Under the pieces are notes generated by a model, which did not search any database, was not told the DNA's origin, and was given only the letters and a program-made list of their open reading frames with translations. From positions 14,761-78,760 of the forward strand of contig JAJEFG010000023.1 in assembly GCA_022820545.1 (NCBI GenBank): a stretch of DNA of 64,000 nt. Direction: 5' to 3'. This document shows positions 8,007-62,134 of the stretch, one piece after another (position 1 is the stretch's first letter; every line of letters starts with the position of its first letter). This stretch comes from Acidobacteriota bacterium (lineage in GTDB: Bacteria > Acidobacteriota > Vicinamibacteria > Marinacidobacterales > Marinacidobacteraceae). Both the position numbers and the translations under genes were made by a program.

Positions 8007-8012
8007 CGGGCC

Positions 8013-35781: not shown

Positions 35782-37308
35782 CTACCGATCCTCGTCCGAG
35801 ATCCGCGATTGCCAGCGCTCGATCTGCCGGGCCGCGGCGTCCCGGCCGCCGAGGCCGAAGGCCACCGCAAACGCCACCGCCACCGCCCCCAGCACGATGC
35901 CGAAGGCAAGCTCGATGATCTCGTTGGCGATGCCCATCTGGCGGAGGCCCACCGCGGTCGTGAAGAGCAGGATGCCCACCCGCGCCGCCAGCGCGAGGAG
36001 CCGTGCCTGCGGGACCCGGCTGGCGCTGATGGCGCGCGCCGAGAGGTTGGCGAGAAAGACCCCGAAGCCCAGGAACACGACTCCCAGCAGGAAATGGCCC
36101 GTGAACTGGAGCAGCCGGCTGAGGAGGTCCGCCACGTTGTCGAAGCCCACCAGGCTGGCCGCCTCGATGCTCGCGAACAGCATGATCAGCGCGAGCACCA
36201 CCACCCGCACGACGTTCGAGGCCGTGTGGTCGTCCGCCGTCGCGGTGCTGGTCAGCCCGATCCGGGTCAGCACGTGGTCGAAGCCGGCCTGCCGGAGGAG
36301 GTCCCGGGTCAGGTTCGCGATGACGCGGCCCACCACGTAGGCGGTGAGCAGCAGCGCCACCGCCACCAGCAGGAGCGGCAGCGCGCTGAAGACCCGCCCG
36401 AGCATGTCGCTCGCCGGCCCCGTGATCACGTCGAGGCTCAAACGGTCGAGCCCCGTCAGGATCACCGGGAAGAGCACCAGCAGGTAGGTGATCCCGCCGA
36501 GCAGCGCCGATGGGGTCCGCGAACCCAGGATCCGCCGGAGCCCGAGCCGCTCCGTCGCCCGGTCGAGCCCCACTGCGGCGAGCAGGTTCGTGACGACCGC
36601 CTTCGCGATCCGGGCAATGAACCACCCGACCAGGAAGATGATGATGGCGCCGAGCACGTTCGGCAGGAAAGTGATGACCTGATTCACGACCGTCTCGATC
36701 GGAAGCAGCACCCCCTCGAGGTCGAGCGCCGCCAGGATCGGCGGCAGAAACAGAAGGAGGACGACCCAGTAGACGATCTCGGGGACCGCGTGCGAGATCC
36801 GGCCCGGCGGCCGATCGGTCCCGCGGTCGAGCCGCTCGTCCACGCCGGCCGCCTCGAGGGCCACCCGCACCGCGCGGCGGAGCACCGCGGCCAGGAACCA
36901 GGCCGCGAGCAGCAGCACGAGCGCCCGCCCCAACTGGGCGACCATCCCCATGATCCGGCCCAGCAGCGTCCCGCCGATGCCTCCGATCGCGGAGAGGTCC
37001 ACGACCGACGCGACCGCGGCCACGACCAGGATCAGGAGCCCCCAGAAGACGATCCGGCCGGCGATCGCCTCGACGTCCTGCTGGGAGGCCCGTTCGGGCC
37101 CGAGCGCCAGCCGGACGCCGCCGGCGACCCGGGACGCGATCCGCTCGCGAAGACCCAACCGGAAAAGGGCCCGGCGGAGCAGGATGACCACCACCAGCGC
37201 GAAACCGAAAGCGGCCACCAGAACGCCCAGCGCGATCACCAGGTGACCGACGGTCGTATCGAAGATCGGGGGCATCCGGCGCAGCAGGTCGGAGAGTGCG
37301 TCGAGCAT
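35782..37308 (-). CDS. TM-helix-repeat membrane protein (MscS-associated conserved TM helix family)
   Basis: Repeated units of hydrophobic helix followed by a short loop. It ends FGLGGRDAAARQIERWQSRI. Paralog of 46510..48093. Confidence 0.75.
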   Translation of the reverse strand: MLDALSDLLRRMPPIFDTTVGHLVIALGVLVAAFGFALVVVILLRRALFRLGLRERIASRVAGGVRLALGPERASQQDVEAIAGRIVFWGLLILVVAAVASVVDLSAIGGIGGTLLGRIMGMVAQLGRALVLLLAAWFLAAVLRRAVRVALEAAGVDERLDRGTDRPPGRISHAVPEIVYWVVLLLFLPPILAALDLEGVLLPIETVVNQVITFLPNVLGAIIIFLVGWFIARIAKAVVTNLLAAVGLDRATERLGLRRILGSRTPSALLGGITYLLVLFPVILTGLDRLSLDVITGPASDMLGRVFSALPLLLVAVALLLTAYVVGRVIANLTRDLLRQAGFDHVLTRIGLTSTATADDHTASNVVRVVVLALIMLFASIEAASLVGFDNVADLLSRLLQFTGHFLLGVVFLGFGVFLANLSARAISASRVPQARLLALAARVGILLFTTAVGLRQMGIANEIIELAFGIVLGAVAVAFAVAFGLGGRDAAARQIERWQSRISDEDR

Positions 37309-45901: not shown

Positions 45902-46409
45902 TTATCCCGGCCCCGCCTGTCCGGCCGGTCCGCTGACCTCGACGCCGGTCCGCAGATACAGGTTCCGGATCGGGTACGGGATCTCGATGCCTTCCTCGCC
46001 AAACCGGCGGTGCAGGAGCTTGATGAAAGCGTTCGCGAGGTCGAAGCGGAACTCGGGCGCCGTGGCCTGGAGCACCGCGTTGAAGGTCACCGCCGAATCC
46101 CCGAAGCCGGTCCAGCGGATATCGCCGCCGAATCCGCCAACCCCGGCATCGCTCTCGTCCTGAACCCGCCGGATGACCTCGCGGGCGGTCTGCTCGGCGT
46201 GTTCCATATCCGTGTCGTAGTGGACACCGACCGGAACCCGGAGACGCACCTTCGGGTCCGGGGTGTCCAGGTTCGTGAGTACCGAATCCGCGAGCTGGGA
46301 GTTCGGGATGATCACGTGGTTGTCGAGCAGCGTCCTGAGCGTCGTCGTGCGCCACCCGATGTCGGTGACGTAACCCTCGACGTCGGCGCCGTGAGTCGTG
46401 CGCCAGGCT
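45902..46409 (-). pseudogene. MscS-family channel remnant (beta and C-terminal domains only, no TM region)
   Basis: The open frame begins right after a TGA with AWRTTHGADVEGYVTDIGWRTTTLRTLLDNHVIIPNSQL, the MscS beta-domain motif. No TM helices are encoded. There is no ATG, and the only in-frame start (GTG 46315) would remove half of the motif. Confidence 0.6.
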
Positions 46410-46509: not shown

Positions 46510-48093
46510 TCAAGACTCGTCCGACGACTCCTGGAGGCGGCTCCCCCACCGCTCGACCCATCGTCCGGCGATGTCCCGGGCGCCGAATCCGAATGCGATC
46601 GCCGCGCCCACGCCGATGCTGCCCGCAAAGATCGCGAAGGCGATGACCAGAATCTCGGTGCCGACCCGCATCTGCTGGAGCGCCATTGCCGCGGACAGCA
46701 CCAGAACGGCAACCCGCGCGGTGACGGCGAGCAGATGCGCCTGGGGGGTGCCGCTGGAACGCACCGCGTCCGCCACCGCTCGGGACACATAGAGGCCCAG
46801 CGCGAGGATGGCAAGACCGACCAGCACGTTGGCGGCGAAGACCATGAATTCCGTGAGGAGTCCGGCCAAACTGGCGAATCCGACCAGACCCAGGGCCTCG
46901 ATGCTGGCCAGAAGAACGATCGTCGGCACCGAGAGCGCCCCAACCACTGCGGAAGGCGGGCGCGACCCCTCGCCCGCACTGGCGAACCCGAGGCGGGCGA
47001 CGAGATCGTCGAATCCCGCAGCGGCCAGGCCCCGCACCAGCAAGCCGGAGACCACCCGGGCGCCGAGGTAGCTCACGGCCAACAGCAGGGCCGCGCCGAG
47101 AAGCGACGGGATGGCGGCGAGCCCCCTCCCGAGCATGGCGACCGCCGGCTCGGTGACGCTGCGCATGGACAGGGCGTCAAGCGCGGCGATGGCGGTGGGG
47201 ACCAGCACGAGGACCTGCACGACGCGGCCCGCCAGTTCCGAAAGCCGGGACGATCCCGACCAGGCGCCGAGTCCCGACGAGTCGCCCACGCGGTCGAAGC
47301 CGACCTCCGCCAGCAGAGCCGACGAGGCGCGCCGGGCGAACTTCGCGGCGAACCAGCCGGCTGCCAGGATGACGGCCGCGGCAAGGACGTTGGGTACGAA
47401 AGCCAGGATCCTCTCCAGGAACGTACGGACGGGGGCCAGGAGACCCTCGATCGCGAGCACGTCGAGCACCGCCGGCAGGAAGAGCAGGAGAATGAACCAG
47501 TACGAGCCCTCGGCCAGCGCCCGGGCCCCTCCCTGCTCGCTGGGAGGTTTGTCGCTGGAAACCTGGCCGATGCGAACTCGGCTTGCAGCCAGCGAAACCG
47601 CGTGTCGAACCCCGGACGCGACGGCAACCGCCACCAGCACCAGTACTCCGGCGGCCAGGAGTTGGGGAACGAACCCGACGATCGCGCTGAGCAGCGTGCT
47701 CAAGGGTTCGGACACGGAGGGCAGGAGGAGGGCCTCGAAGAACGCGGCCAATACGAAGAGCATCACCAGGTAGAAGGCCGCTTTCCCCGCGTAGTGGGCG
47801 ACCGGGGCGGCGTTGCCGGGCGCGCCGCCAGCCAGCCACCTCCCGATCCGGGTGCGGCCGAGCGCGCGCCGCGTGATGGCCCGGACGCTCATGCCCGCGA
47901 GCCACGCGAGCAACCAGCCGAGCACCAGGATGACGCCGGCGCCGAGGATGTTGCTCAGGTAACCGCTGGCTACCGACGTCAACTGAGCTACGGTCTCTTG
48001 GAACAGGTCTGCCAGGGACTGCATCGTTCGCGTCTCTCCTTCGGGTTCCGGGAAACCCTGCCGTTTCTTCCGGCTGTGCCGGACGGCCTCCAA
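46510..48093 (-). CDS. TM-helix-repeat membrane protein (paralog of 35782..37308)
   Basis: Same repeated-helix architecture. It ends FGFGARDIAGRWVERWGSRL. Confidence 0.75.
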   Translation of the reverse strand: MEAVRHSRKKRQGFPEPEGETRTMQSLADLFQETVAQLTSVASGYLSNILGAGVILVLGWLLAWLAGMSVRAITRRALGRTRIGRWLAGGAPGNAAPVAHYAGKAAFYLVMLFVLAAFFEALLLPSVSEPLSTLLSAIVGFVPQLLAAGVLVLVAVAVASGVRHAVSLAASRVRIGQVSSDKPPSEQGGARALAEGSYWFILLLFLPAVLDVLAIEGLLAPVRTFLERILAFVPNVLAAAVILAAGWFAAKFARRASSALLAEVGFDRVGDSSGLGAWSGSSRLSELAGRVVQVLVLVPTAIAALDALSMRSVTEPAVAMLGRGLAAIPSLLGAALLLAVSYLGARVVSGLLVRGLAAAGFDDLVARLGFASAGEGSRPPSAVVGALSVPTIVLLASIEALGLVGFASLAGLLTEFMVFAANVLVGLAILALGLYVSRAVADAVRSSGTPQAHLLAVTARVAVLVLSAAMALQQMRVGTEILVIAFAIFAGSIGVGAAIAFGFGARDIAGRWVERWGSRLQESSDES

Positions 48094-48148
48094 CCGCTAT
48101 GGACGACGCCGGGCCGGCAAAGTCACATCGCGGCGTCTCGTGGCCGGA

Positions 48149-48967
48149 TTACTTGGACTGGCGGACGATCTCCCGGAGCAGACGGCTGTTGGACACGGAC
48201 ACGATCGCGTCTTCCTGCTCGATCAGCGCGTTCGTCGGGGTGATCGAGATGAGGACGCCCCGGTGCCCCCCGATCTCGACCTCCTGCCCGATCCGGAAGA
48301 TCCGGCGAGCGTAGAGCCCCGCAAGGATGTCGCGGGCCGAGTCCCTGGCCCCCAGCCCGAACGAGAGCCCGAGCGCCAGGGCGAGGCCGGCCAGGATCCA
48401 GCCGAGCAGCAGCCAGACGGCGTCCGTGGTGATCCGCAACTGGTTGACCGCGAAGAGCGCGGCCGCAAACACGATGGCGGCGAACGCCAGTGTTCCGAGC
48501 GTTTGCGCATACTCGATCCCGGCGTCCAGCGCTGCCTGTCTGGCGCCGCGCCGAATGTGCCCTGCGACCGTCACCCCGCCTAGCAGGATCGCGCTCGCCA
48601 GGAGCACTCGGGGCGCGTACGCCAGCACCCCGCCCAGACCCGCGGCGAGCGCCGGCAGCCCGAGGGCATCGGCCACGAGCTGACCGGTCAGCAGGCCCGC
48701 CAGCACGAAGGCGCCGCGTCCCAGCACCTGACTCAGCGGCCGGCTGATGCCGAAGCGGCCGAGCGCACCCTGCACCCCGACCTGGTCCGCCCACGCGTCG
48801 AACCGGCGGAGGAGGAATCGGGTGATCCGGCCAGCGGCCCAGCCTGCCGCGAAGGCTACCGCCAGCAACACCAGGCCGCGAACGAGAAGCTCGCCCGACA
48901 CGTAGAGCCAACTCAGAAGGGAACGCAGGGTTTCCGACAGGTCGCCGCTGAGATCGAGATCCGTCAT
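48149..48967 (-). CDS. small MscS-like / TM-helix protein (272 aa)
   Basis: TM-helix repeats, then LSFGLGARDSARDILAGLYARRIFRIGQEVEIGGHRGVLISI...VSVSNSRL. This is a truncated MscS beta domain with no C-terminal alpha/beta domain. Confidence 0.7.
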   Translation of the reverse strand: MTDLDLSGDLSETLRSLLSWLYVSGELLVRGLVLLAVAFAAGWAAGRITRFLLRRFDAWADQVGVQGALGRFGISRPLSQVLGRGAFVLAGLLTGQLVADALGLPALAAGLGGVLAYAPRVLLASAILLGGVTVAGHIRRGARQAALDAGIEYAQTLGTLAFAAIVFAAALFAVNQLRITTDAVWLLLGWILAGLALALGLSFGLGARDSARDILAGLYARRIFRIGQEVEIGGHRGVLISITPTNALIEQEDAIVSVSNSRLLREIVRQSK

Positions 48968-49251
48968 TCGGTGACTTCCTTTCTCCGCGGAGCCGTGGGA
49001 CCGTCGCCCCGCCAGAACGCGATGACCGCAACCACGAGTTCCAGGACGGCGAGGGCCGGGCCGAGGACGCAGAACTCCACCACGCTCGCGGCGAACAGCC
49101 GCCGCTGAATGGAGCGCCGCACCCGGCCGACGAACGACTCATCCGCAGCGTCCGTGGCGCCTGCCGGCGGCAGCATGGGCACCCGCGCTTCCGCATCCGC
49201 GTTCGTCGTCCGCGGGGTTCGCGCGCCCCCTTTCCCGTCGCGCCGTTTCAT
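48964..49251 (-). CDS. putative membrane anti-sigma factor (95 aa, single TM)
   Basis: ATGA overlaps with the ECF sigma upstream and the MscS-like gene downstream. One TM segment, FAASVVEFCVLGPALAVLELVVAVIAFW. The call rests on position only. Confidence 0.5.
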   Translation of the reverse strand: MKRRDGKGGARTPRTTNADAEARVPMLPPAGATDAADESFVGRVRRSIQRRLFAASVVEFCVLGPALAVLELVVAVIAFWRGDGPTAPRRKEVTE

Positions 49252-49877
49252 GGCCGAACAGGCGCCGCCGGATGCGGCGGCGTGGGGTCGTTGGGTTCGA
49301 CCGGCGCGCCGAGGCGCGCTCGCAGAGTCCGGCGAGCCCGCAGGACGCGCATCTTCGCCGCCGACAGCCCGAGACCAAGCGTCCGGGCAATCTCCTCGTA
49401 GGCGAGTCCGTCCAGATCCCGGAGCGTCAGCGGGACCCGCAAGGTGTCGGGCAACGCTTCAATTGCGGAGGCCAGGCGCTCGTAGGCCTCCGCATCGATC
49501 AGGTCCTGTTCCGCGGAAGCGGGGACCGACAGTTCCGGCGCTCCCGCCAGTTCGGGTGCGCCGACATCCACGAAGGTTCGTCCTCGACCCACCTTGAGGT
49601 GGTCCAGGCAGTGATTGACCTTGATTCGCTGCACCCATGTCCGGAACGAGGAACCGCCCCGGAACCGGCGCAGGCCGAAGTAGGCCTTGATGAACACCTC
49701 CTGGGCCAGGTCCTCGGCGTGCTCCGGCTGGCTCGTCAGAAAACGACAGTTGGCGACCACCCGGGCCCGATGGCGCCGAACCAGCGTGTCGAAGGCGCGA
49801 ACGTCGTCCCGGGGCGAGTCCTTCAGTTGGTTGACGAGCATCTCGTCCGACACCTCTTCGGGAGCCGGACTCGTCAT
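49248..49877 (-). CDS. ECF-type RNA polymerase sigma-70 factor
   Basis: Region 2 DLAQEVFIKAYFGLRRFRGGSSFRTWVQRIKVNHCLD. Region 4 LRDLDGLAYEEIARTLGLGLSAAKMRVLRARRTL. Confidence 0.9.
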   Translation of the reverse strand: MTSPAPEEVSDEMLVNQLKDSPRDDVRAFDTLVRRHRARVVANCRFLTSQPEHAEDLAQEVFIKAYFGLRRFRGGSSFRTWVQRIKVNHCLDHLKVGRGRTFVDVGAPELAGAPELSVPASAEQDLIDAEAYERLASAIEALPDTLRVPLTLRDLDGLAYEEIARTLGLGLSAAKMRVLRARRTLRARLGAPVEPNDPTPPHPAAPVRP

Positions 49878-50128
49878 GCGGCCGCTCCGGTCATCGTTGA
49901 AGCGATCGCGCCGCGCAGCCCGGCACTGTCGCCATAGACCGCCTGACGGGCCCAGTGGTCACAACCGGTGGCGCGGGTGTTCCCCACCGGCCGCCGGCAC
50001 TGGCCGTCCGATGTGACGGATCCGGGGTTGGACTCGTCATTGGAAGGTGGCGCGAATGCTGTCAAGTCCATGGAGCCGGGAGCGAGCGAACATATCCCAT
50101 GCCCCCGGAACTTCCGGAGCGCGTTCGC

Positions 50129-51853
50129 ATGCAACCAGCACCTCGGACGGATCCCCCCTGGTCGCGTTCTCCGTCCCTCCTGTTGCGCTGCGGCGATCAT
50201 CGGTCGCTGCCGCCCAGGTCGCCGAATGTGCCGTCAGGTTGCCCGCGCGCGTTGAACCCGTGCGGCCAACCCCTCGGAATCCGGGCTCGGGCGGCCTTCG
50301 CCAGCAGGTGTCTGCTCGCGATCCTGGCCGCCGTTCCGACCGCTGCACAACCCGAGGGGCACCCCCCCTACCACCGCTGGCTGGCGCCTCCCGTCGAAGC
50401 GCAGCTCGCCGCCGATTCGACCGAAGTCCCCGAGGGTATGGGAGCGATCTTCGTTCCTGCGTTGTCCGACGGCGAATCGGAGCCGCAGTCGGTCGTCGTG
50501 CGGGGATCCCGGCAGGTTGCCTCCGGCCCGAACGGAAGCCGGATTCCGGTCCCGCCGGGCGACTACGCGGTCGTGGTCGGAAGCGGACCGATTGCGGGAC
50601 GGGTCCGCATCCCGGTGGAGGTAGCGGCGGGACAAACGACCGTGGCGCCCGTTCGGTGGGGTGGACTCCGCGTCGAGGTGGTGGACGAGCGGAACATCCC
50701 GCACGGGGCCTCCTTCGAACTGATCCGCGTCGTGGATCGTCAGGTTCACCTGACCGGGTCCGGGGCGGACACGCTCGAGGGGGAACGCCTCGGCACCCTG
50801 CTCCTGCCGGAGGACCTCTACCGCATCGTCCGGCGCCGGTCGGCATACCGGACCCGGACCGACTTCGCGGGCGTCTTCGTGCCGGCCGGGGCGCTGGTGC
50901 ACTACCGGCTCGTCATCAGCCGGACGACCGGGGAAATGCGGGGCGGAGCGGCGGTGACCGCAGAGGAAACCGGCCAGGCCGGCGCCCGTTCTCCCTGGAC
51001 CCGCAGAATCTCGGCCGGCCTCTCGATGCCGTTCGCCTCGACGGTGAATGTCGTGGGGAAGCCGAACCAGACATCCGTGGCGGCCGATGTCTTTGTGGAC
51101 GCCTACCTGACCTACCAGCGCGGCCGAGACTCCCTGGGAGGCATCCTCGAAGTCGAACAGGGAGTGCTCATGGTGGACCCGGAGGGCACGCAGGCGCTTC
51201 CGGTCCAGAAGACGAGCGACCGGATCCGCGCCGATGTTCTCTACAGCCGCTTCCTGGGACCCCATCTGGGCCCCTACGTCCGGATCGGACTGCTCACCAG
51301 CGCCAGGGTCTCGGAGACCCTCTTCACGGAGGCGACCGGCGTCACGCTCGAGCGTCTCGACGGGACGTTCGACAGTCGGCGGGTCGGTGCGAACGACACC
51401 CTGCGCACCGCCGGCGCCTTCTCGCCGGTGCTCCTGCGCGAAGGTCTCGGCCTCAACGCGCGCCTGGTCCGGCTGCCGACGCTCACGCTCGACTGGCGCG
51501 GCGGTTTCGGATTGCGCCAGAACTGGTTTCGACGGGCGCTCTATCTGGACGACGACCCGCGGACGGCGGCCCTCGACTACCGGGAGGCGGCGAGCTTCCA
51601 CGAAGCGGGCGCCGAAATGACCTTCCTGGTTTCGGGCCGCTACCGCTTCCTGACGCTCAACGCCAGCCTCGACCTGTTCGGCAACGCCGGAGAGGAGCGG
51701 CATCTCACGGTCGATTGGCGCAGCACCGTCACCTGGCAACTGACGAGCGGGCTGTCGCTCAACTACAACCTCGATCTCGCCCGGATGCCGCAGGTCCGCT
51801 CGGAGAATCAGGTCACCCAGGCGCTGTTGCTGGGCGTCACCTTCGGGTCCTGA
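50129..51853 (+). CDS. uncharacterised outer-membrane-like protein, paralog A
   Basis: Signal-like FASRCLLAILAAVPTAAQ. N-terminal beta-sandwich-like region (VRWGGLRVEVVDERNIPHG). The C-terminal half has alternating beta-strand-like patterning. Clear paralog of 60105..61802. Start is uncertain: ATG 50129 or TTG 50252 (track 49955). Confidence 0.65.
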   Translation: MQPAPRTDPPWSRSPSLLLRCGDHRSLPPRSPNVPSGCPRALNPCGQPLGIRARAAFASRCLLAILAAVPTAAQPEGHPPYHRWLAPPVEAQLAADSTEVPEGMGAIFVPALSDGESEPQSVVVRGSRQVASGPNGSRIPVPPGDYAVVVGSGPIAGRVRIPVEVAAGQTTVAPVRWGGLRVEVVDERNIPHGASFELIRVVDRQVHLTGSGADTLEGERLGTLLLPEDLYRIVRRRSAYRTRTDFAGVFVPAGALVHYRLVISRTTGEMRGGAAVTAEETGQAGARSPWTRRISAGLSMPFASTVNVVGKPNQTSVAADVFVDAYLTYQRGRDSLGGILEVEQGVLMVDPEGTQALPVQKTSDRIRADVLYSRFLGPHLGPYVRIGLLTSARVSETLFTEATGVTLERLDGTFDSRRVGANDTLRTAGAFSPVLLREGLGLNARLVRLPTLTLDWRGGFGLRQNWFRRALYLDDDPRTAALDYREAASFHEAGAEMTFLVSGRYRFLTLNASLDLFGNAGEERHLTVDWRSTVTWQLTSGLSLNYNLDLARMPQVRSENQVTQALLLGVTFGS

Positions 51854-52007
51854 ACGGTGCTTCGGGTGGAGTGCCTTCGGCGGCAAGGCGCCGGCCTGGC
51901 GTTTCGCTCAGCCTGGAACGCGGCGCTCCGGAGTCCCCCGCCCCGGCGCCGAGAGACCTATACTCCGGCGGCCCGTCCCGCCGCACAGCACAGGACGCCT
52001 GATACCC

Positions 52008-52802
52008 ATGCCTGATGTCCCATGGCGCATATTCAGCGGCGACGGCCCGCTGGTAGCCACCGCGATCCACCACGGACACGATGTCCGTCCGGAAGTCCGG
52101 GAGCGGATGGCGCTCCCCGAGGACCGGCGCCTGAACGAGGAAGATCCCTTCACCGGCCCGTTCACGGCCGTGGCGCCTACCCGGATCATCGTCGAACGGT
52201 CGCGTTTCGAGGTGGACCTGAACCGGCCGCGGGAGAACGCCGTCTATCGCCGTCCCGAGGACGCCTGGGGAATCCGGGTGTGGCGCGGCGAGCTCCCGGA
52301 CGATGTCTGCGACCGGTCACTGGCGATCCATGACGCGTTCTACAGCACCCTCGGCGCAATCCTCTGGGAGAAGGAGCGGCGATACGGCGCCTTTGTGGTG
52401 TTCGACCTGCACAGCTACAACCACCGCCGTGACGGACCGGACGCTCCGCCACAGGATCCCGCGGCGAACCCGGAGGTCAATCTGGGGACCGGATCCATGG
52501 ACCGGCAGCGCTGGGGGGCCCTCGCCGACCGGTTCATGGAGGACCTGCGGTCCTTCGACTTCGGCGGCCGTCATCTCGACGTGCGCGAGAACGTCCGGTT
52601 CCGCGGCGCCGAGCTCTGCCGCTTCGTTCACGCCAGGTTCCCGAAGACCGGCTGCGGCCTCGCGATCGAGTTCAAGAAGTTCTTCATGGACGAGTGGACC
52701 GGGGAGACCTATCCGGAAATCCACGGGCGGATTCCGGAGGCGCTGCGCGCCACCGTCCCGGGGATTCTCGAAGAACTGGAGAAGGTGCGCTCAGCGCGCT
52801 GA
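52008..52802 (+). CDS. N-formylglutamate amidohydrolase (FGase)-family protein
   Basis: VATAIHHGHDVRPE ... RLNEEDPFTG ... FDLHSYNHRR, consistent with the metal-dependent FGase fold. Confidence 0.65.
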   Translation: MPDVPWRIFSGDGPLVATAIHHGHDVRPEVRERMALPEDRRLNEEDPFTGPFTAVAPTRIIVERSRFEVDLNRPRENAVYRRPEDAWGIRVWRGELPDDVCDRSLAIHDAFYSTLGAILWEKERRYGAFVVFDLHSYNHRRDGPDAPPQDPAANPEVNLGTGSMDRQRWGALADRFMEDLRSFDFGGRHLDVRENVRFRGAELCRFVHARFPKTGCGLAIEFKKFFMDEWTGETYPEIHGRIPEALRATVPGILEELEKVRSAR

Positions 52803-52826
52803 CGTGGCAACCCGACATCGCGGCCG

Positions 52827-54710
52827 GTGATACCCGCCCGCTTCCTGCGCTCGGCCGCCGCGCGGCTCGCCGCCGACCAGCCCCTCCGGCGCCAGCTTCC
52901 GGACTGGGGCCAGGTCCACATTGACCGGCAGCTTCCCTTCGTCTGCGTGTACCGGCGCCCCCGAAGGTCGCGGGACGGTCTCACCGCCCGGCTGATCACC
53001 ACCCAGGCGTCGTACGTTGCCGGCATCGAGGACGAGATCGCCCCCCTGGTGCGGACCATCGCCGCCACCCTTTCTCCGGTCTTCGGCGGCTTCCTGGTCT
53101 TCGAGCTGTGGGAGACGCCATCCCGGGAACTGCCGGGAGAGCCCGGCGCCGTCGCCCCGGGTTTCCGGATCCTCGCCCCCCGCGGGGAGGGGCTGACCTC
53201 AACCGTTCAGGCGCTGGCCGCGGAACTGACGGGAGTCCGCATCTACAAGCATCCAGCCGAGGTGGAGGCGCGGTTCCGGGAGCGCATCGCGCCGCCGCGG
53301 CTCGCCCCGCTGCTTTCCGCCGCGGAACTCGGCGAAACCGGGGCGCACCTGATCGGACTCGGCATCCGGCCGGTGCATCGCGACCCGCGTACCCGCGACG
53401 TGTATCCCCTGGTGCTCCGGGCGCTCCGGCGTCAGCTCTATCGCCCGTTCGCCAAGACCGTCTTCGAGTACTCCCGCGTCCACACCACCCAGACCGTGCG
53501 CCACTACCACTCGCTGGGCCGGCGCGCGCTGGTGAAGGCGGCCTGGGAGGTGGACCGGGGCCTCGCCGAGGTGGGCAGCGGGTTCGATTTCCTGCTCCAG
53601 GTCACCCCGATCAACCTGGAAGCCGCCTGGATCGCGTTCCGCCGCTCCCGCTTCGAGCGGGCTCCCCGGTTCCTGTACCGGCCGCTGCCGGTCCTCCCGG
53701 GCATGTTGAAACGGAAGCTCTACCAACTGCCGCTCACCCGGATCGAGGATCCCGTGATCGCGGTCCTCTTCTTCGAGAAGCAACGGGAGCTGGACCGGCA
53801 GTTGTCCATGCTCCTCGATCTGGAGACGAGGAACTTCCTCTACGGGAGCCTCCAGGTCTTCGGGCGTCCGGACGAAACGACGTTGCGGTTCGCCCGGCAA
53901 CTTCTGGACCGGATCCCCGCGCGGACCCGGGAATCGTCCGCTGGCCGGTTCCTGAAGGCGCCGGTGGTCGCCGAACGGGCGAGAGCCGAGATTGCCCGCC
54001 TCCGCGAGTCCATGCCCGAACTGGAAGCGCAGGTCGAAATCCGCGACGACGTGCAAGGCCTGATGGTTTCGCGCGGCAACGTCCTTGTCGGGAGCGGGGT
54101 GACCGTCCCTCCGTCTCGCGCGTATGCGCTCCTCCAACACGAGGTGGGCACCCACGTGCTGACCTACTACAACGGGCGGGCCCAGCGGTTCGCCCAGCTC
54201 CGCGCCGGGCTCGCCGGGTACGACGAGACGCAGGAGGGCTTCGCGGTCGTCGCCGAGTACCTCACCGGGGGCCTGACCCGGAAGCGGCTCCGGCTGCTGG
54301 CGGCCCGGGTCGTCGCGGCGGACACGCTGGTCGCGGGGGCCTCGTTCGTCGAGACGTACCGTAAACTCACTTCAGATTTGGGTTTCGGCGGCAAGGCGGC
54401 GTTCGGCATCGCCGCCCGGGTGCATCGCGGCGGGGGACTGACGAAGGACGCCCTGTATCTGCGCGGATTGCTGGGCGTGCTCGACTACCTGGCCGGGGGT
54501 GGGGATTTCGAACCATTGCTGGTCGGGAAGATCAGCGCCCGCCACATTCCCCTGATGCGGGAACTCCTGATGCGCAAGGTGCTCCGGCCTCCTCCGCTGC
54601 GCCCCCGCTACCTGGAGGATCCGCTCGCCCAGGCACGGCTGGAACGCGTCCGCGCGGCGCGGTCTCCCTCACAACTGTTGCTCGAATCGCTCAAGGAGAG
54701 AACCGGATGA
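52827..54710 (+). CDS. QEGLA-motif protein (DUF1704; tyrosine/phenylalanine carboxypeptidase-like)
   Basis: HEVGTHVLTYYNG (HExxH) followed by YDETQEGFAVVAEYLTG (QEGLA motif). GTG start. Confidence 0.85.
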   Translation: MIPARFLRSAAARLAADQPLRRQLPDWGQVHIDRQLPFVCVYRRPRRSRDGLTARLITTQASYVAGIEDEIAPLVRTIAATLSPVFGGFLVFELWETPSRELPGEPGAVAPGFRILAPRGEGLTSTVQALAAELTGVRIYKHPAEVEARFRERIAPPRLAPLLSAAELGETGAHLIGLGIRPVHRDPRTRDVYPLVLRALRRQLYRPFAKTVFEYSRVHTTQTVRHYHSLGRRALVKAAWEVDRGLAEVGSGFDFLLQVTPINLEAAWIAFRRSRFERAPRFLYRPLPVLPGMLKRKLYQLPLTRIEDPVIAVLFFEKQRELDRQLSMLLDLETRNFLYGSLQVFGRPDETTLRFARQLLDRIPARTRESSAGRFLKAPVVAERARAEIARLRESMPELEAQVEIRDDVQGLMVSRGNVLVGSGVTVPPSRAYALLQHEVGTHVLTYYNGRAQRFAQLRAGLAGYDETQEGFAVVAEYLTGGLTRKRLRLLAARVVAADTLVAGASFVETYRKLTSDLGFGGKAAFGIAARVHRGGGLTKDALYLRGLLGVLDYLAGGGDFEPLLVGKISARHIPLMRELLMRKVLRPPPLRPRYLEDPLAQARLERVRAARSPSQLLLESLKERTG

Positions 54711-55753
54711 AGATCGGTTTCATGATCAACGACGTCAACACCGAGGAGGCGGGCTACACCACCACCCGGCTCGCGATGTACGCCACGAACCGGGGACACG
54801 AGACCTGGCACATCGGGGCTGGTGACTTCGCGTACGGCGTGGACGAAAAAACCCACGCGTACGCCCGCGGGGTGAGCCGACGGCAGTACAAGAGTCTTGA
54901 GGGGTTCCTGGCGGAACTCCAGGGCAAGAAGGCGCGCCGCGAACACATCTCGGTAGACGATCTCGACGTCCTGCTGCTGCGCAGCGATCCGTCCACGGAA
55001 ACGGGCACCCGGTCCTGGGCGGCCACCGCGGGCATCAATTTCGGCCGGATCGCCATGCGGCGCGGAGTGATCGTCCTGAATGATCCGAACGGGCTCGCCA
55101 AGGCCACCGACAAGATGTACTTCCAGCTCTTCCCCGAAGAGGTGCGGCCCCGCACGGTCATCTCCCGCGACCGTGACGACATCAAGCACTTCGTCAAGGA
55201 GGAAGGAGGGACCGCGGTCCTCAAGCCGCTCCAGGGATCGGGCGGCCGCGGCGTCTTCCTGGTGCGCCCCGGCGATCAGTCCAACCTGAACCAGATGATC
55301 GAGTCCATCGTCCGGGACGGCTACGTCATTGCGCAGGAGTACCTGGCGGCGGCGTCCGAAGGGGACACCCGGCTCTTCCTGGTGAACGCCCTGCCCTATC
55401 GCTACAAGGGCAGATACTGCGCGTTCCGCCGGGTCCGGACCGGTGACGACATACGCAGCAACATCCACGCCGGCGGCCGCAAGCGGGGGGCTGAGATTGG
55501 CGCGGAGGCGCTCCGTCTCGCCGAAATCGTCCGCCCCCGGCTGGTCCAGGACGGGATGTTCATGGTCGGGCTGGACATCGTCGGGGACAAGCTGATGGAG
55601 ATCAATGTGTTCAGTCCTGGCGGACTCGGCAGCGCCCAGTCCTTCGAGAAGGTCAACTTCAGCGTGGGCGTCATCGAGGCCCTCGAGCGCAAGGTCGAGT
55701 ACATGAAGTACTACCGCCGCAACTTCGACAACGTGGACATGGCCACGCTGTAG
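54707..55753 (+). CDS. glutathione-synthetase-like ATP-grasp ligase
   Basis: MKIGFMINDVNTEEAGYTTTRLAMYATNRGHE resembles a GshB N-domain. ATP-grasp core is VLKPLQGSGGRGVFLV. Its ATG overlaps the upstream stop (ATGA). Confidence 0.8.
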   Translation: MKIGFMINDVNTEEAGYTTTRLAMYATNRGHETWHIGAGDFAYGVDEKTHAYARGVSRRQYKSLEGFLAELQGKKARREHISVDDLDVLLLRSDPSTETGTRSWAATAGINFGRIAMRRGVIVLNDPNGLAKATDKMYFQLFPEEVRPRTVISRDRDDIKHFVKEEGGTAVLKPLQGSGGRGVFLVRPGDQSNLNQMIESIVRDGYVIAQEYLAAASEGDTRLFLVNALPYRYKGRYCAFRRVRTGDDIRSNIHAGGRKRGAEIGAEALRLAEIVRPRLVQDGMFMVGLDIVGDKLMEINVFSPGGLGSAQSFEKVNFSVGVIEALERKVEYMKYYRRNFDNVDMATL

Positions 55754-57045: not shown

Positions 57046-58350
57046 TCAGAGGAGATCCGCAAAGATGGTCGCCAGCCCGAGAAAACTCAGGAATCCGACG
57101 ACGTCCGTAACGGTGGTCAGGAGGATGGAGGACGCCTGCGCCGGGTCCTTCCCCACGACGGTCAGGAACACCGGGATCACGGCGCCCGCGACGCCCGCGA
57201 TCGCCATGGCGGCGACCATGGCCACCCCGATGACCAGCGCCAGACCGAAGGACCGGCTCCAGGCGTAGACGCTGACACTGCAAACCGCGCCCACCCCGAA
57301 GCCGTTGATCGCTCCGGCGAAGAGCTCCTTGACCGCCACCTTGAACACCGACCGCGAAGTGATCTCCTGCACGGCCAGCCCTCGCAGCACGACGGCGAGC
57401 GCCTGGCTTCCGGTGTTGCCCGACTGGCCGGCCACCACGGGCAGCAGGACCGCCAGCGCGGTGAACTTCGAGATCGTCTCCTCGAAGATCCCGACCACGG
57501 CGGCGGCCACGAAGGCGGTGACGAGGTTGATCTGAAGCCAGGGGAGCCGCTTCTTCACCGCGAACCCGACGCTCGACAGCGCGCGCTCCTCCGCGCTGGC
57601 CCCGGTCATGCTGACCAGATCGGAACTGAGTTCCTGGCTGACCTCCTGCATGAGCTCGTTCAGCCGCAACACCCCGATCGGAGCGCCGTCCACGCTCACC
57701 ACCGGGACGCTCGTCACCCGCCCGCTCTGCATGATCTCGACCACCTGGGAGCGGGGAGCGAATGGCGAAACGGTGATCGGGGCGGACGTGATCACCGAAT
57801 CAAGAGTCGCTTCCGGGTCCGCGAGCGCAGCCCGATGGAGCGAAACCACCCCGGACAACCGACCCTCGTCATCCACGGCAAAGACGTTGAAGACGGTCCG
57901 ATCGGAGTCGTCGGTCCGCAACCGCGCGAGCACCGCGCCGACCTTGGCGCTGTGACGGAATGCGGCGATTCTGGGATCCATGAGGCTGCCGGCGGTGGCC
58001 TCCGGGAACGCCAGGAGCTTCGACAGTTCCGCGGCGTCCCTGGCCGGCAGGCAAGCCAACAGCTCCTGCCGGGCCGCCGGTTCGAATCCCCGGAGGAGTA
58101 CGCCGGCAAGGGACGGGGGCAGGCGCACGACCAGGTTGGCGGCCGCAGCGAGGTCCGACGACTTCAGAATCCCCAACGCCCTTGCGGTGCTGAGCGCCCG
58201 GAACGCCTTGAGAAACGTCTCGGGCTTCATCGCCGCCAGCAGTTCGGCGGCCTCGCCGTCGGAAACCGATTCCAGGTGGTCCGAGCTCTCGCTGGGATGC
58301 CTCTCGACGAAGTCGTGAGCCAGCCGGCTCGCGGCGGCAAGATCAGCCAA
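57046..58350 (-). CDS. mgtE: magnesium transporter MgtE
   Basis: MgtE N-domain, CBS pair and a five-TM C-terminal domain with PVVAGQSGNTGSQAL and DPAQASSILLTTVTDVVGF. Trimmed from the 666-aa track ORF to TTG 58350, which overlaps the upstream stop (TTGGCTGA). Confidence 0.85.
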   Translation of the reverse strand: MADLAAASRLAHDFVERHPSESSDHLESVSDGEAAELLAAMKPETFLKAFRALSTARALGILKSSDLAAAANLVVRLPPSLAGVLLRGFEPAARQELLACLPARDAAELSKLLAFPEATAGSLMDPRIAAFRHSAKVGAVLARLRTDDSDRTVFNVFAVDDEGRLSGVVSLHRAALADPEATLDSVITSAPITVSPFAPRSQVVEIMQSGRVTSVPVVSVDGAPIGVLRLNELMQEVSQELSSDLVSMTGASAEERALSSVGFAVKKRLPWLQINLVTAFVAAAVVGIFEETISKFTALAVLLPVVAGQSGNTGSQALAVVLRGLAVQEITSRSVFKVAVKELFAGAINGFGVGAVCSVSVYAWSRSFGLALVIGVAMVAAMAIAGVAGAVIPVFLTVVGKDPAQASSILLTTVTDVVGFLSFLGLATIFADLL

Positions 58351-59176
58351 GACGACGCTCGGTGTCCGCTGGCCGCGCGCCCACCGCCATTCCGGACACC
58401 ACCCCGGCGAGGCCGAGCCAGCAGAGCTCGGAGAAGGCAGCCACCAACTCGGTGACCGGACGTGCGCGATCGTGCCCGGCAACCCGGCGAAGCGTCTCCG
58501 GGTCGAGGACTCCCACCAGGGCTCCCGTGCGATCCACGACCGGCGTGGGCGTTCCGTCCAACCGCCGGTCGTCGGCCAGGGTCGCGAGCGGTGTTCTTGC
58601 CGCAATGGTCGGAACCGCTCGCAGCTCGAGCGAGCCAACCGCCGTGCCTCGCGGCGCCCAGCAAAGCGACACCGTTCTGAGGGCCCCCCGCACCCGCCGG
58701 GAACGGTCAAGCACCAGCACCCGTTCGGGGACGATCTGTTCGTGGGCGCCAAGGAAATCGATGGCGCGTTCCACTGTTTGATCCTCGAACAGGGTGAGAA
58801 CGTCCGACGACGCCGAGGCGCCGGCGGAGTTCTGCGGGTACCCGAGCGCGTCACGGATCGGTGTCGCGACGGCCGGACCCAGGGTGTCGAGGCACTCCTC
58901 CCGGATGGCGCCCGGGCAGTGGCGGAGGAGAGCAGCCGCGGTGGGCGGGGAGAGCTCCCCAACCACGGCGGGCCACGTCTCGGGGGACAACTGGACGAGA
59001 CAGTCGGCGGCGAAGCGCGAGGTGAACAGCGAGAGCACCCGTGCAACGACTTCGGGCGGGGCGTGCCGAAGCAGGGCCGCGGCCTCTCCGCGGGAGCAGT
59101 GCTCGAGGACCCGCGCCGCCTCCTCGGGCCGCCGCTCCAGGTGAACGAGGGCCAGGTTCCGAATCGCCGTCGCCAT
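58343..59176 (-). CDS. stand-alone MgtE-N plus CBS-pair cytosolic domain protein (no TM domain)
   Basis: LERRPEEAARVLEHCSRGEAAALLRHAPPEVVARVL is an MgtE N-domain repeat. It is followed by a CBS-like pair, and the protein ends without membrane helices. Confidence 0.7.
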   Translation of the reverse strand: MATAIRNLALVHLERRPEEAARVLEHCSRGEAAALLRHAPPEVVARVLSLFTSRFAADCLVQLSPETWPAVVGELSPPTAAALLRHCPGAIREECLDTLGPAVATPIRDALGYPQNSAGASASSDVLTLFEDQTVERAIDFLGAHEQIVPERVLVLDRSRRVRGALRTVSLCWAPRGTAVGSLELRAVPTIAARTPLATLADDRRLDGTPTPVVDRTGALVGVLDPETLRRVAGHDRARPVTELVAAFSELCWLGLAGVVSGMAVGARPADTERRLG

Positions 59177-60001
59177 TCAGTCCCTGCGTCCGATCACCAC
59201 GCACCCTTCGTCGCAGAAGACGCGAGCCGGTATGTGGACGGCGTTCCCGTCGGATTCGATCACGACCGACGTCGCGTTCATGCGCGACACCGTGCCCTCG
59301 ATCTCGCCGATGCGGACGACATCGCCGACCTGGAAGGCGCGGGAGGCGTAGTGGGACGCCAGGATGTTGGTCACGATGGGACCGGCGCCCACACCGAACG
59401 ACAGCGCGACCGCGCCGAGCGCCGCGCCGAGAACGACGAGCGCCAGCGAGGAAACGAACCCGGCGCCCTGGAGACCCACCTGCTGCGCGCTGACGATCAG
59501 GGTGACGGCCAGGATGCCGCCCCAGGCGAGCCGCGCCAGCGCCTGCGCCCGTTCGCCGCCGGCATCTGCGGATGCGGCCAGAATCCAGTTCTGGGCGAGC
59601 CGCGCGGCCACGATTCCAGTGAGGAGCACGGCGAGCGCCAGCACGAAGCTGGGCAGGAAGTGGGCGACCGGCGCCAGCAGGCCGTCGGTGACCGCGAAGG
59701 GGAGCGCCTCGACCGCCGCCGCCAGGAACAGCAGGAGAACCACCCAGTACAGGACCCGCCCGACGATGCCCGGCGCTGAGGCCAGGAGGCCGCCGAGTCG
59801 CGCGGACTCCATCGATCCCACCCGCGATTCCAGGCCCTTGAGAGGCCCGCGGAGGAGGCGCACCGCCACCAGCCGGCAGAGGCTGGCCAAGCCCCATCCC
59901 GCCAGCAGCAGGGCCGCCGGATAGACGAACGCCCACCAGCCTTCCGCGGCTCCCCCGGTGACCGCCTGCCAGAGCCGCGACAAAACGGGAGTCTCCATCA
60001 T
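59177..60001 (-). CDS. small MscS-like / TM-helix protein (274 aa)
   Basis: Same architecture as 48149..48967: LSFGVGAGPIVTNILASHYASRAFQVGDVVRIGEIEGTVSRMNATSVVIES...VHIPARVF. Its stop abuts the next ATG (TGAATG). Confidence 0.7.
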   Translation of the reverse strand: MMETPVLSRLWQAVTGGAAEGWWAFVYPAALLLAGWGLASLCRLVAVRLLRGPLKGLESRVGSMESARLGGLLASAPGIVGRVLYWVVLLLFLAAAVEALPFAVTDGLLAPVAHFLPSFVLALAVLLTGIVAARLAQNWILAASADAGGERAQALARLAWGGILAVTLIVSAQQVGLQGAGFVSSLALVVLGAALGAVALSFGVGAGPIVTNILASHYASRAFQVGDVVRIGEIEGTVSRMNATSVVIESDGNAVHIPARVFCDEGCVVIGRRD

Positions 60002-60104: not shown

Positions 60105-61802
60105 TTACCCTCCCAGGGAGTATCGGAACAGCACGCTCTGGCTGAGTTGCGTCTGATCGCTCACCTGGGGCAGCCACAGGAGGTCCACCCGGTAGTCGAG
60201 CGACAGGTCCCCGGTCAGTCGCCAACTGAGCGTGCTGCGCCAATCGATCGTGGGTTCGAATCCCGCGCCGAGGTCGCTGAACAGGTCCAGGGTGGTGGTG
60301 TAGAGGAACACCCGAAAGCGGAATGCTCCGACCAGGGTGGTCTCGACGCCCTCCGAATTGAAGTCCAGCGCCTGGACGTATTCCACTTCCGGGGTCTCCG
60401 GATCGTCATCCAGGAAGAACGCGCCGCCGAAGCGGTTCTGCCGCAGTCCGATTCCCACACGCCAGTCGAGCCGCGCCGCTCGTCCGCGAAGCAGCCGCGC
60501 GTTGACGCCCACCCCCTCGCGAATGACCGGTGGGCTGAACGGATCGCCCGTCCTGAAGGTGGTGTTGGCCGGTACGAACTCGAGCTCCCGCCGTCCGTCC
60601 GCGTACTCGCGCGCCACGGTCAGGGCTTCGGTCGCGAGAGCGTTCGAATCAAACAGACTGGTCCGGAGACTCAGCCGCACGTACGGCCCGAAACGGGGAT
60701 TCAACAACCGCGAATACAGAAGGTCAATCCGCAGCCGGTCGCGGGTCTTGCGCCATGGAATCGCCGGCGATGCCTCCGGCTTGATCCGCTCGAATCCCGC
60801 TTCCAGCTCCAGGACGCTGCTGAAGACGTTGCCCTCCCGCTCGTAGTTGAGGTACGAATCGAAGGCTCCCTCCGCACCGACGGTTGTCTCGTTCTTCTCG
60901 CCCACCACGTTTCGATGCAGGGTGAACGGCGCCGCAAGCCCGATGGCGTACCGGTGAATCCACGCGGATTCGTCGACCGTCTCCCCAAGATCCTCCGCGG
61001 TTACGACTCCGGCGCCTCGAAACTGACCCGTCTCGGGGTTCATGACGAGCCTGAAGTGGACGAGGCCGCCTTCGGGAACAACCACCGTGGCGAAGTCGGT
61101 CCGTACTCGATAGCTCGAGCCCGGCTTCACGATGCGATAGAGACCCGGAGGCATGAGGGTGGTGAGCAGCGGCTCGCCCTGGAGCCGATCCGCGCCAAAA
61201 CCGACCACGTAGGGCTGGAGATCGGAGACCCGGATCAGTTCATAAGCGCCGCGATGCGGGAGGTTGCTCTCGTCCACGACCTCGATGCGAAGTCCCCCCC
61301 ACCGGACCGGGACCAGCGTCGTCGCTCCGGCCGCGACCTGAACGGACAGGGCGGTCATCTGCGGCGTCGGACCGCTGCCGACCAGTACGGTGTAGGCGCC
61401 GGGGTGGAGCACGATCCGTCTTCCGTTCCGCCCGATCGCCACCGGTTCGTCGGCGCGCAGGACGAGGGCCTGTGGCTCGCTGTTCCCGTCCGTCATGGCG
61501 GGAACGAAGATCGCGCCGAAACCCGGTGGCATCGCAGTCTCGTCTTCGGCGAGTTGCGCCGCCGGCTCCGCGGCCAGCCAGTGGAAGAGGGCCTCCGACG
61601 GGGATGGTTGCGCGGCAACGGCGAAGCGCCCCAGGGTCAGCGTCACGACGGCCACGAGCAGGAGGCGCGAGCCATCCCGGCTCACCACCACTGGCCCCGG
61701 CGGGGGGTCGGGCGGATCCATCGAAGCGGGCCGCGCGGACGACCGCTCGCCGGAACCTCGCGGACGGGATTCGGCGGTCGCGGCATCAGCGGTTTCCGCC
61801 AT
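60105..61802 (-). CDS. uncharacterised outer-membrane-like protein, paralog B
   Basis: Aligns by eye along its whole length with 50129..51853, for example FGAIFVPAMTDGNSEPQ, VRWGGLRIEVVDESNLPH, LYRIVKPGSSYRVRTDFA. The N-terminal start is uncertain. Confidence 0.65.
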   Translation of the reverse strand: MAETADAATAESRPRGSGERSSARPASMDPPDPPPGPVVVSRDGSRLLLVAVVTLTLGRFAVAAQPSPSEALFHWLAAEPAAQLAEDETAMPPGFGAIFVPAMTDGNSEPQALVLRADEPVAIGRNGRRIVLHPGAYTVLVGSGPTPQMTALSVQVAAGATTLVPVRWGGLRIEVVDESNLPHRGAYELIRVSDLQPYVVGFGADRLQGEPLLTTLMPPGLYRIVKPGSSYRVRTDFATVVVPEGGLVHFRLVMNPETGQFRGAGVVTAEDLGETVDESAWIHRYAIGLAAPFTLHRNVVGEKNETTVGAEGAFDSYLNYEREGNVFSSVLELEAGFERIKPEASPAIPWRKTRDRLRIDLLYSRLLNPRFGPYVRLSLRTSLFDSNALATEALTVAREYADGRRELEFVPANTTFRTGDPFSPPVIREGVGVNARLLRGRAARLDWRVGIGLRQNRFGGAFFLDDDPETPEVEYVQALDFNSEGVETTLVGAFRFRVFLYTTTLDLFSDLGAGFEPTIDWRSTLSWRLTGDLSLDYRVDLLWLPQVSDQTQLSQSVLFRYSLGG

Positions 61803-61863
61803 CTTGAGACGGTTCGGTCCGGGCTCGGGTCACATCCGGCAGCGGCGCCGGGCCCGGCCGGCC

Positions 61864-62106: not shown

Positions 62107-62134
62107 GGTCCCGGATTCTGCCACGGCAGTGGCC

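Follow-up and report, generated by a model that had tools for sequence, protein, structure and literature searches.

Two outer-membrane barrel paralogs beside small MscS-like channel genes in an acidobacterial genome: a possible SigX-type envelope-stress module

Gene content of the locus

The stretch of DNA analysed here (64,000 nt, referred to as the window) belongs to an Acidobacteriota assembly of 3.46 Mb (108 contigs, 91.8% complete) and carries two related genes for an uncharacterised outer-membrane protein (OMP), named paralogs A and B, each of which lies beside a gene for a small channel of the MscS type. A gene for an extracytoplasmic function (ECF) sigma factor is located next to the first pair. 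The genes on which the analysis bears are the following, with the strand in brackets; ORF stands for open reading frame.

50129..51853 (+): OMP paralog A, ORF as called
49248..49877 (-): ECF sigma factor, the best match to the SigX model among the seven ECF genes of the genome
48964..49251 (-): 95-aa ORF that lies between sigma and channel A and has a single hydrophobic stretch; may encode an anti-sigma or CfrX-like membrane protein
48149..48967 (-): small MscS-like channel A, 272 aa, with PF05552-type transmembrane helices and the MscS beta-domain but no C-terminal vestibule domain
46510..48093 (-): 527-aa membrane protein with five PF05552 repeats (NCBIfam NF033912, 'mechanosensitive ion channel', 285 bits)
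60105..61802 (-): OMP paralog B, ORF as called, at the head of a same-strand string of small MscS-like, MgtE_N, MgtE and CorC genes
59177..60001 (-): small MscS-like channel B, 274 aa (PF00924, 31.8 bits)
58343..59176 (-): MgtE_N-domain-only protein, 277 aa
57046..58350 (-): MgtE Mg2+ channel, 434 aa as in the relative L017
55771..57012 (-): CNNM/CorC-type transporter with CBS domains

The initial annotation of this DNA had aligned the two OMP genes by eye over their whole length. Both ORFs exist, and a BLASTP comparison revealed 252 identities over 520 positions (48%, E 3e-163), extending from the signal peptide to the C-terminus and its last strand; the motifs quoted in that annotation (GAIFVPA.., VRWGGLR.EVVDE, LYRIV, DWR..G.GLRQN and DWRST) were all present in the alignment. 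A six-frame search of the genome detected no OMP copy beyond these two. As judged from the sequence, translation of paralog A probably starts downstream of 50129, at the in-frame GTG 50228 or TTG 50252, and that of paralog B probably at ATG 61721, because a 96%-identical database homologue starts there; the long N-terminal extensions of both ORFs are probably untranslated.

The gene order around each copy was also as annotated. Paralog A is divergent from a string formed by the genes of the sigma factor, the 95-aa ORF, channel A and the 527-aa PF05552-repeat protein, and paralog B lies directly upstream of channel B, which starts 104 nt further on in the same strand. The two channels are homologous (E 1e-9, 30% identical over 161 aa), with PF00924 scores of 31.8 bits for B and 15.5 bits for A (cut-off 20.2). 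The C-terminal alpha/beta domain PF21082 was found in neither of them, both ending directly after the beta-domain, and a hidden Markov model (HMM) of this small channel type detected exactly these two full-length genes in the genome. By reading of the sequences, the small channel would have almost no periplasmic mass, with predicted periplasmic loops of a few residues.

Both OMP/channel pairs were also present in a close relative, represented by one metagenome-assembled genome (loci L003 and L017). Near-identical DNA of the region 47900-52000 was found only in DNA contigs of sponge metagenomes, and three runs of one study, one of them perhaps its source, contained 0.84-1.00 of the sampled words of this region.

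Recurrence of the gene pair and a promoter-like motif

The neighbourhood of the OMP was analysed in species-representative genomes, at 80 loci of the family with flanks of at most 6 kb, in which channels were sought by tblastn and HMM searches; the overall sampling comprised 301 acidobacterial genomes and 160 loci. The small channel type was detected at 10 of the 80 loci, and any gene of the MscS superfamily (small, PF05552-repeat, canonical MscS or MscK-like) at 14 of them (L003, L005, L017, L019, L024, L026, L028, L029, L030, L052, L054, L055, L059 and L062), so that adjacency to MscS-type genes does extend beyond this genome. In the OMP tree (75 rows; L027, L035, L051, L061, L065, L071 and L079 were omitted because of a short match or a stop), a Myxococcota clade of 28 rows, six rows of Bradymonadales and an acidobacterial part of 41 rows were distinguished. 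All 14 channel-linked loci fell within the acidobacterial part, where a basal clade of 10 rows carried a PF05552-repeat gene in 8, and paralogs A and B belonged to separate, well-supported clades. At least six different gene orders join the OMP to MscS-superfamily genes:

Sigma string divergent from the OMP: paralog A of the window, L003, L030
MgtE_N-MgtE-sigma-small ORF-channel-PF05552 protein-OMP on one strand: L005
OMP-channel-MgtE_N-MgtE-CorC: paralog B of the window, L017, L019
PF05552 gene divergent; channel and sigma running towards the OMP end: L026, L028, L059, L062
OMP divergent from a group made up of channel, sigma and PF05552 gene: L029
OMP preceded, at a distance of 10 nt, by an MscK-like channel of 1166 aa: L054
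OMP at the head of OMP-PF05552 protein-GshB-small channel, sigma and one channel being divergent: genome G052

At L054, genes for Alginate_exp-like and DUF481 (90.8 bits) barrels follow the OMP gene (7571-10046, +).

The pairing is facultative in both directions. At E 1e-5 the small channel was absent genome-wide from six OMP-bearing genomes without an adjacent channel (G001-G005 and G009), and a seventh (G010) gave a weak match only, the three positive controls of the same search scoring 1e-103 to 1e-112. Across 301 evenly sampled acidobacterial genomes, matches to the channel profile were obtained in 45 (E 1e-30) and to the OMP profile in 5, with both families in three genomes (G000, G052 and G036), that is, in 3/45 of the channel-bearing ones; OMP and channel were neighbours in G000 and G052, and were located on different short contigs in G036. 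In the five genomes examined that had both families on readable contigs, the two were neighbours (G000 twice, G006, G007, G008 and G052). An obligate OMP/channel pair is thus contradicted by the six OMP genomes without the small channel and by the low share of channel genomes with the OMP.

Co-regulation is the best-supported link between the OMP and the channels. The sequence GATGTGAC-N17-CGTC was found twice in the window, once upstream of each OMP paralog and in the correct orientation. As the motif was first derived from these two upstream regions, this pair of matches is weak evidence, and the independent test of the motif lies only in its later recovery at sigma genes and in other genomes. 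Leaving aside the genome under study and L003, GTGAC-N17-19-GTC preceded the sigma orthologue at 19 of 25 loci. A two-block matrix was built from those 19 sites and used to scan both strands of the genome (6.9 million positions), giving 155 sites above 11 bits. The following lie before genes of the locus, and most of the other top sites lie inside genes:

48098-48130 (-): promoter-like site before the PF05552-repeat gene, 28.9 bits, rank 1, the strongest of the genome
49933-49966 (-): promoter-like site before the ECF sigma gene, 56 nt upstream, 16.8 bits, rank 11
61804-61837 (-): promoter-like site before OMP paralog B, 15.8 bits, rank 17
50009-50042 (+): promoter-like site before OMP paralog A, TGTGAC-N18-GTC, 14.9 bits, rank 28

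The stricter first motif (with CGTC) was present upstream of only 3-5 of the 80 OMP genes, and the looser matrix derived from the sigma genes was used instead to scan 350 nt around each OMP start at 79 loci for sense sites of at least 14 bits. The median score was -0.3, and such sites were detected at 10 loci (L003, L017, L019, L024, L026, L028, L029, L030, L059 and L062), corresponding to 10/13 loci that have a small MscS-like or PF05552-repeat neighbour compared to 0/66 of the others; L054 is not counted among the 13, its sole MscS-superfamily neighbour being MscK-like. The module loci without a site were L005, where the OMP lies inside an operon, L052 and L055. On the basis of these sites, both OMP genes are predicted to depend on the sigma factor.

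The sigma gene itself accompanies the channel elsewhere. The sigma and channel genes form part of one same-strand string, the sigma gene was found within 1.5 kb in 17 of the 18 top channel loci of other genomes, and a gap of 231-398 nt separated the two genes in 24 of 26 loci, with a hydrophobic ORF in 11 of these 24 by a crude pick of the reading frame. Where a genome has no OMP, the gene running divergently to sigma, often with this motif on the other strand, encodes MscL (L114, L118) or belongs to the PilZ, DUF4332 or PF05552-repeat genes (L115, L120, L121). At L116, an OprF/OmpA-type gene is located directly upstream of sigma on the same strand, with the motif at the gene start, and MgtE_N genes were found behind the relatives of channel B (L104, L105, L110). 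The common theme of the sigma neighbourhood is mechanosensitive channels, Mg2+ channels and an outer-membrane protein.

Regarding the rest of the window, one more feature borders the sigma string:

45905..46396 (-): C-terminal remnant of a canonical MscS gene (residues 191-354, 97.6% identical to the L003 gene)

The canonical MscS gene is intact in L003, and about 0.8 kb has apparently been deleted here between the SDF symporter and PF05552-repeat genes. Further channel genes encode a PF05552-repeat protein (35782-37308, -) and a canonical MscS (43436-44299, -). The window holds 4/6 PF00924 matches and 2/3 PF05552-repeat proteins of the genome, and the other two PF05552-repeat genes (35782..37308 and one on contig C67) have neither OMP nor sigma as a neighbour. 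Downstream of paralog A (52008-55753, +) there is a trio of FGase, MATCAP (DUF1704) and glutathione-synthetase-like ATP-grasp genes; a GshB-like gene was also found within the OMP-channel strings of G052 (L125, 11430-12497) and L052. At 42401-43212 (+), the gene calls for an RsbW-like HATPase_c_2 protein and a STAS-domain protein overlap, as a partner-switching pair, and in G052 the channel gene is followed by one for a receiver-HATPase_c_2 protein (L125, 5155-6264).

Architecture and wider contexts of the outer-membrane family

No Pfam or NCBIfam family was detected above cut-off in either OMP copy, paralog A giving only a trace of CarboxypepD_reg (E 0.3). The guess of an N-terminal beta-sandwich followed by a C-terminal barrel was borne out by an AlphaFold (AF2) model with a 40-sequence alignment as input (pLDDT 88.7, pTM 0.80), in which an N-terminal helix corresponding to the signal peptide precedes not one but two sandwiches (residues ~54-121 and ~126-225 of the model) and a barrel (237-523). 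In paralog A these parts correspond to:

About 50282-50347 (+): predicted signal peptide, cleaved after ..TAA and before QP
About 50441-50644 (+): beta-sandwich 1
About 50657-50956 (+): beta-sandwich 2
About 50990-51850 (+): barrel

Both copies show the features of a Sec signal peptide, that is, an Arg-rich n-region, a hydrophobic core and A-x-A followed by Q at the cleavage site. A simple signal-peptide heuristic was satisfied in 94 of 120 homologues, most of those inspected among the remaining 26 beginning past the signal region, and a lipobox was found in 1/120. Checked for an aromatic beta-signal, the proteins end in ..VTFGS (A) and ..YSLGG (B), and the consensus of the long forms described below ends in ..LF.

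The barrel comprises only about 285 residues, with 15-19 DSSP strand segments. When it was compared with 48,161 chains by VIA-align, the top match was the TamA barrel 4n74 (Z 13.6, root-mean-square deviation (rmsd) 5.2, 197 aligned residues), followed by PelB (Z 12.8), NanC (12.4), Omp33 (12.0) and OmpG (11.7), a flat list of all sorts of outer-membrane barrels. As modelled, the outer-membrane barrel class is clear, and the matches point to no specific family. In a Foldseek search the first row was FapF (E 5.7e-6, TM 0.2-0.35), but the top rows reached TM scores of only 0.2-0.4, and with a list this flat a FapF-like or autotransporter-like secretion barrel was dropped as a candidate; so was a SusC/TonB-dependent receptor, given the small barrel and the lack of a plug or TonB_dep_Rec match.

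When modelled alone, the N-terminal part reached a pLDDT of 93.5. Sandwich 2 is similar to domains of the CnaB, transthyretin and carboxypeptidase-regulatory types (at best Z 7.2, with rmsd 2.3 over 80 aligned residues), although no sandwich match was obtained at Z 8 or above, and a sandwich profile gave at best E 0.23 against the sequences of PDB chains. The sandwich pair is the most conserved part of the protein, with a mean column identity of 61% compared to 41% for the whole, and it should face the periplasm, because the barrel comes after it and in accordance with general barrel topology.

The closest sequence relationships of the barrel are with the DUF3078 and DUF481 (YdiY-like) families, through weak matches within the barrel region. 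For DUF3078 (PF11276, cut-off 25 bits) paralog B scored 21.0 bits and paralog A gave no match, with weak matches in 13 of 40 relatives and some long forms passing the cut-off (e.g. 36.6 bits); DUF481 (PF04338, cut-off 21.1 bits) matched neither copy of the window, but was matched at E 0.01 or better by 5 of 40 relatives (best E 1.3e-7). ESM Atlas neighbours of the OMP carry these families in 11-14% of members. Judging by these matches, the barrel is distantly related to DUF3078/DUF481, from which the window proteins differ in falling under both gathering cut-offs; to our knowledge, neither family has tandem sandwich domains. No functional study of either was seen in the titles and abstracts inspected. 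Neither an OprF/OmpA family (PF00691, PF05736) nor a peptidoglycan-binding domain was found in either paralog. Both are members of a widespread, unnamed outer-membrane family with a Sec signal, two transthyretin/CarboxypepD_reg-like sandwiches and a C-terminal barrel.

This large family comprises 1098 representative clusters at E <=0.001, 791 at 1e-10 and 310 at 1e-30, and among its first 120 members all those that are named are labelled 'hypothetical'. The best 150 representatives include 23 long forms of ~690-810 aa with an N-terminal extension of 220-300 aa, whose source names are 'PqiC' and 'YmbA'. The PqiC/YmbA-type lipoprotein domain PF03886 was found in 14/14 long forms tested and in 0/3 mid-length forms, and an alignment of the long forms shows an invariant Cys in an LxGC lipobox. 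Long forms in the sampled loci (L126-L205; P0201-P0303) consist of a PqiC-like domain, a proline-rich linker, the two sandwiches and the barrel, roughly 700-800 aa in all.

The genomic contexts of these proteins were analysed in metagenomes at 32 loci with long flanks, picked from 80, for which 100 of the 152 listed neighbouring ORFs were examined. At the 27 loci with a PqiC fusion, an MlaD/MCE gene lay immediately upstream in 23, MlaE was nearby in 3 and nothing was found in 1, the usual order being MlaE(STAS)-ABC ATPase-MlaD-fusion or MlaD-fusion-MlaE; at the short-form loci, MlaE was directly downstream in 3/5. In Bradymonadales, an MlaE-ABC-MlaD-PqiC string ends beside the OMP. In L030, where the OMP is related to paralog A, the sigma string goes on with channel-BON protein-MlaE-...-MlaD, and right after the OMP of L030 (7550-13513, +) and L025 (7612-13578, +) lies a gene for a DUF748/AsmA/YhdP/TamB protein with POTRA repeats (1988 aa). 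These giant proteins resemble a TamB-TamA-like fusion.

The long forms thus share the lipobox and PF03886 with the PqiC lipoproteins of Escherichia coli PqiABC, Brucella Mpc and P. aeruginosa PA3211-3214, which belong to MCE systems, and they are encoded directly after MlaD/MCE genes, in MlaE-MlaF-MlaD operons. However, PqiC proteins have been described as stand-alone lipoproteins that carry no barrel, and the window copies have no PqiC domain; no PqiC-barrel fusion is mentioned in the portions of the literature on PqiC systems that were consulted. A barrel-terminated MCE system (MlaD-barrel) has been reported for Veillonella (PMC12436622). Regarding TamA/TamB, TamA barrels head the list of structural matches and a TamB/AsmA protein with POTRA follows the OMP in L030 and L025, but the OMP has no POTRA domains, its barrel is apparently smaller than that of TamA and the matches are generic. 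By analogy, the contexts of the family make a role in lipid or envelope homeostasis at the outer membrane likelier than one in ion conduction.

Comparison with the SigX cluster and alternative explanations

In Pseudomonas aeruginosa, a cluster is described with the order cmaX (CorA-like)-cfrX-cmpX (MscS homologue)-sigX-oprF (PMC7826278, PMC7641640), in which cfrX-cmpX and oprF are transcribed by SigX, a sigma factor that reacts to cold shock and to alterations of the membrane (PMC7826278, PMC7641640, PMC10965496). Like the window, this cluster joins an ECF sigma factor, a small membrane protein (for which the 95-aa ORF is the candidate in the window), a small MscS homologue, an outer-membrane protein and an Mg2+ channel. 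The two differ in gene order, in the OMP, which in the window is not OprF/OmpA-like, in the Mg2+ genes, which are MgtE_N, MgtE and CorC instead of the CorA-like cmaX, and in an additional PF05552-repeat channel here and MscL in relatives. CmpX is presumably ~274 aa long and carries PF05552. None of the 62 proteins returned by a profile search with the small-channel alignment was named CmpX. Directly upstream of paralog B and on the same strand, there are a cold-shock-domain gene (61864-62124, -) and a fatty-acid desaturase gene (62135-63136, -), a membrane-fluidity and cold context that may echo the SigX literature.

The initial annotation had proposed a trans-envelope module not described before. 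Its exported barrel OMP, for which the model and the signal features of both copies speak, and the recurrent adjacency to MscS-type genes were retained, but the obligate pair was not, and neither was the novelty of the cluster type, as cmaX-cfrX-cmpX-sigX-oprF is known in P. aeruginosa, with a different outer-membrane protein, as far as the cluster is presented in PMC7826278 and PMC7641640. The locus is most likely an acidobacterial variant of a SigX-type envelope-stress cluster, into which a different, uncharacterised OMP family has been recruited via a shared ECF promoter.

In mechanistic terms, the ECF sigma factor would use TGTGAC-N17/18-GTC promoters to drive its own operon, with the genes for sigma itself, the putative 95-aa membrane protein, the CmpX-like small MscS and the PF05552-repeat channel, as well as the two OMP genes, paralog B together with the MscS-like/MgtE_N/MgtE/CorC string downstream of it. 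The result would be a SigX-type module responding to membrane tension or envelope stress, in which the barrel takes the place that OprF has in Pseudomonas, its own job being most likely outer-membrane lipid or envelope homeostasis. We give about an even chance to this reading as a whole, that is, that shared regulation in such a stress module is what ties the paralogs to the small MscS-like genes, without their being part of a fixed two-protein machine and presumably without direct contact with the channel, and that the barrel acts in lipid or envelope homeostasis.

Several results weigh against it. The sigma factor reaches only 75.4 bits with the SigX model NF007222 (cut-off 194), and RpoE-type models give it higher scores. 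The group ECF102 is described as belonging to Bacteroidetes and Gammaproteobacteria, with no conserved promoter motif and lacking an auto-promoter (PMC7826278), whereas a conserved putative auto-promoter is found here and the sigma factor lies below the cut-off of the SigX model; the sigma group of the window thus differs from ECF102 in the form in which that source presents it. The sites before the OMP genes (14.9 and 15.8 bits) fall under the training range of 17.9-28.6 bits, and about 30 sites of the genome, mostly inside genes, score as high. Regarding the lipid role, the 28 Myxococcota rows of the tree have neither channels nor Mla genes nearby, 17 Myxococcota loci carry a gene for an OmpA-family lipoprotein directly after the OMP, and in the genome under study (91.8% complete) no MCE (PF02470) or PqiC (PF03886) domain was found, and therefore the window copies must work without that partner. 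The lipid-transport context of the window copies is borrowed from relatives, and a lipid role for them would be an extrapolation.

The same co-regulation and gene orders would be expected of an outer-membrane diffusion channel, either a porin-like vent for the solutes released by the mechanosensitive channels or an Mg2+ route to MgtE. Paralog B heads the MgtE_N/MgtE/CorC string, L005 joins MgtE to the module, true porins (NanC, OmpG, OprB) and the copper channel PcoB are among the structural matches (Z 10-12), and the Pseudomonas counterpart OprF is described as a porin (PMC7826278). However, porins are not singled out in a flat list that contains all kinds of barrels, the strongest contexts outside the window concern lipid transport (PqiC fusion, MlaFED, TamB-like) and not ions, and the most conserved part of the protein is the periplasmic sandwich pair and not the barrel, so that we regard a diffusion channel as unlikely. 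Less is to be said for a stress-induced structural protein that would anchor the outer membrane to the wall as OprF/OmpA proteins do, by itself or via a partner with an OmpA domain. Such a role would suit a protein in the genomic place of OprF, the OmpA-family lipoprotein genes of the 17 Myxococcota loci could supply the partner, and at L116 the orthologous sigma gene is preceded by an OprF/OmpA-like gene that has the motif at its beginning; but the lack of a detected OmpA or peptidoglycan-binding domain in the OMP, sandwiches that match only generic transthyretin/CnaB folds (Z 7) and PqiC/MCE and TamB contexts that it leaves unexplained make this explanation quite improbable.

The model of the initial annotation, a physical trans-envelope complex of the OMP with the small MscS-like protein, agrees with the adjacency of the two genes in all five readable genomes and with the high conservation of the periplasmic sandwiches, as expected of a docking surface. 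Nevertheless, each family mostly occurs without the other, the channel would offer only periplasmic loops of a few residues, and the OMP also pairs with unrelated channels (MscK-like, PF05552-repeat) and with lipid transporters, which leaves the complex very improbable. We attach just as little probability to the absence of any functional link, that is, to inherited synteny plus one segmental duplication. The association is indeed confined to part of the Acidobacteriota, and 66/80 loci have no MscS-type neighbour, but the linkage persists through the six or more rearranged gene orders between members only 40-55% identical, the promoter motif tracks the association (10/13 vs. 0/66), and within the window the channels are only 30% identical and each pair has a different gene order.

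The reading based on shared regulation in a SigX-type module can be taken one step further. The family may constitute an outer-membrane port for the phospholipid bridges of MCE/PqiC and perhaps TamB systems, the acidobacterial proteins being a stand-alone version under a tension-sensing ECF sigma factor together with MscL/MscS valves; we consider this proposal tentative and rather doubtful. If it were true, one regulon would both dump solutes and adjust the supply of lipids to the outer membrane upon changes in turgor or fluidity.

As a variant of a known cluster type, the apparently new pair represents a smaller gain than it first promised. Even so, an acidobacterial regulon with a clear conserved motif could be a cleaner model for the coupling of membrane-tension sensing to envelope remodelling, because the promoter consensus of Pseudomonas SigX is said to be undefined (PMC7641640). 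The more interesting lead is the barrel family itself, as a possible outer-membrane end of MCE/PqiC systems. The entry and exit of lipids at the outer membrane, where MCE/Pqi bridges end, has been called obscure (PMC13631591), and a large family that is fused to PqiC in Mla-type operons would be a concrete candidate for this step.

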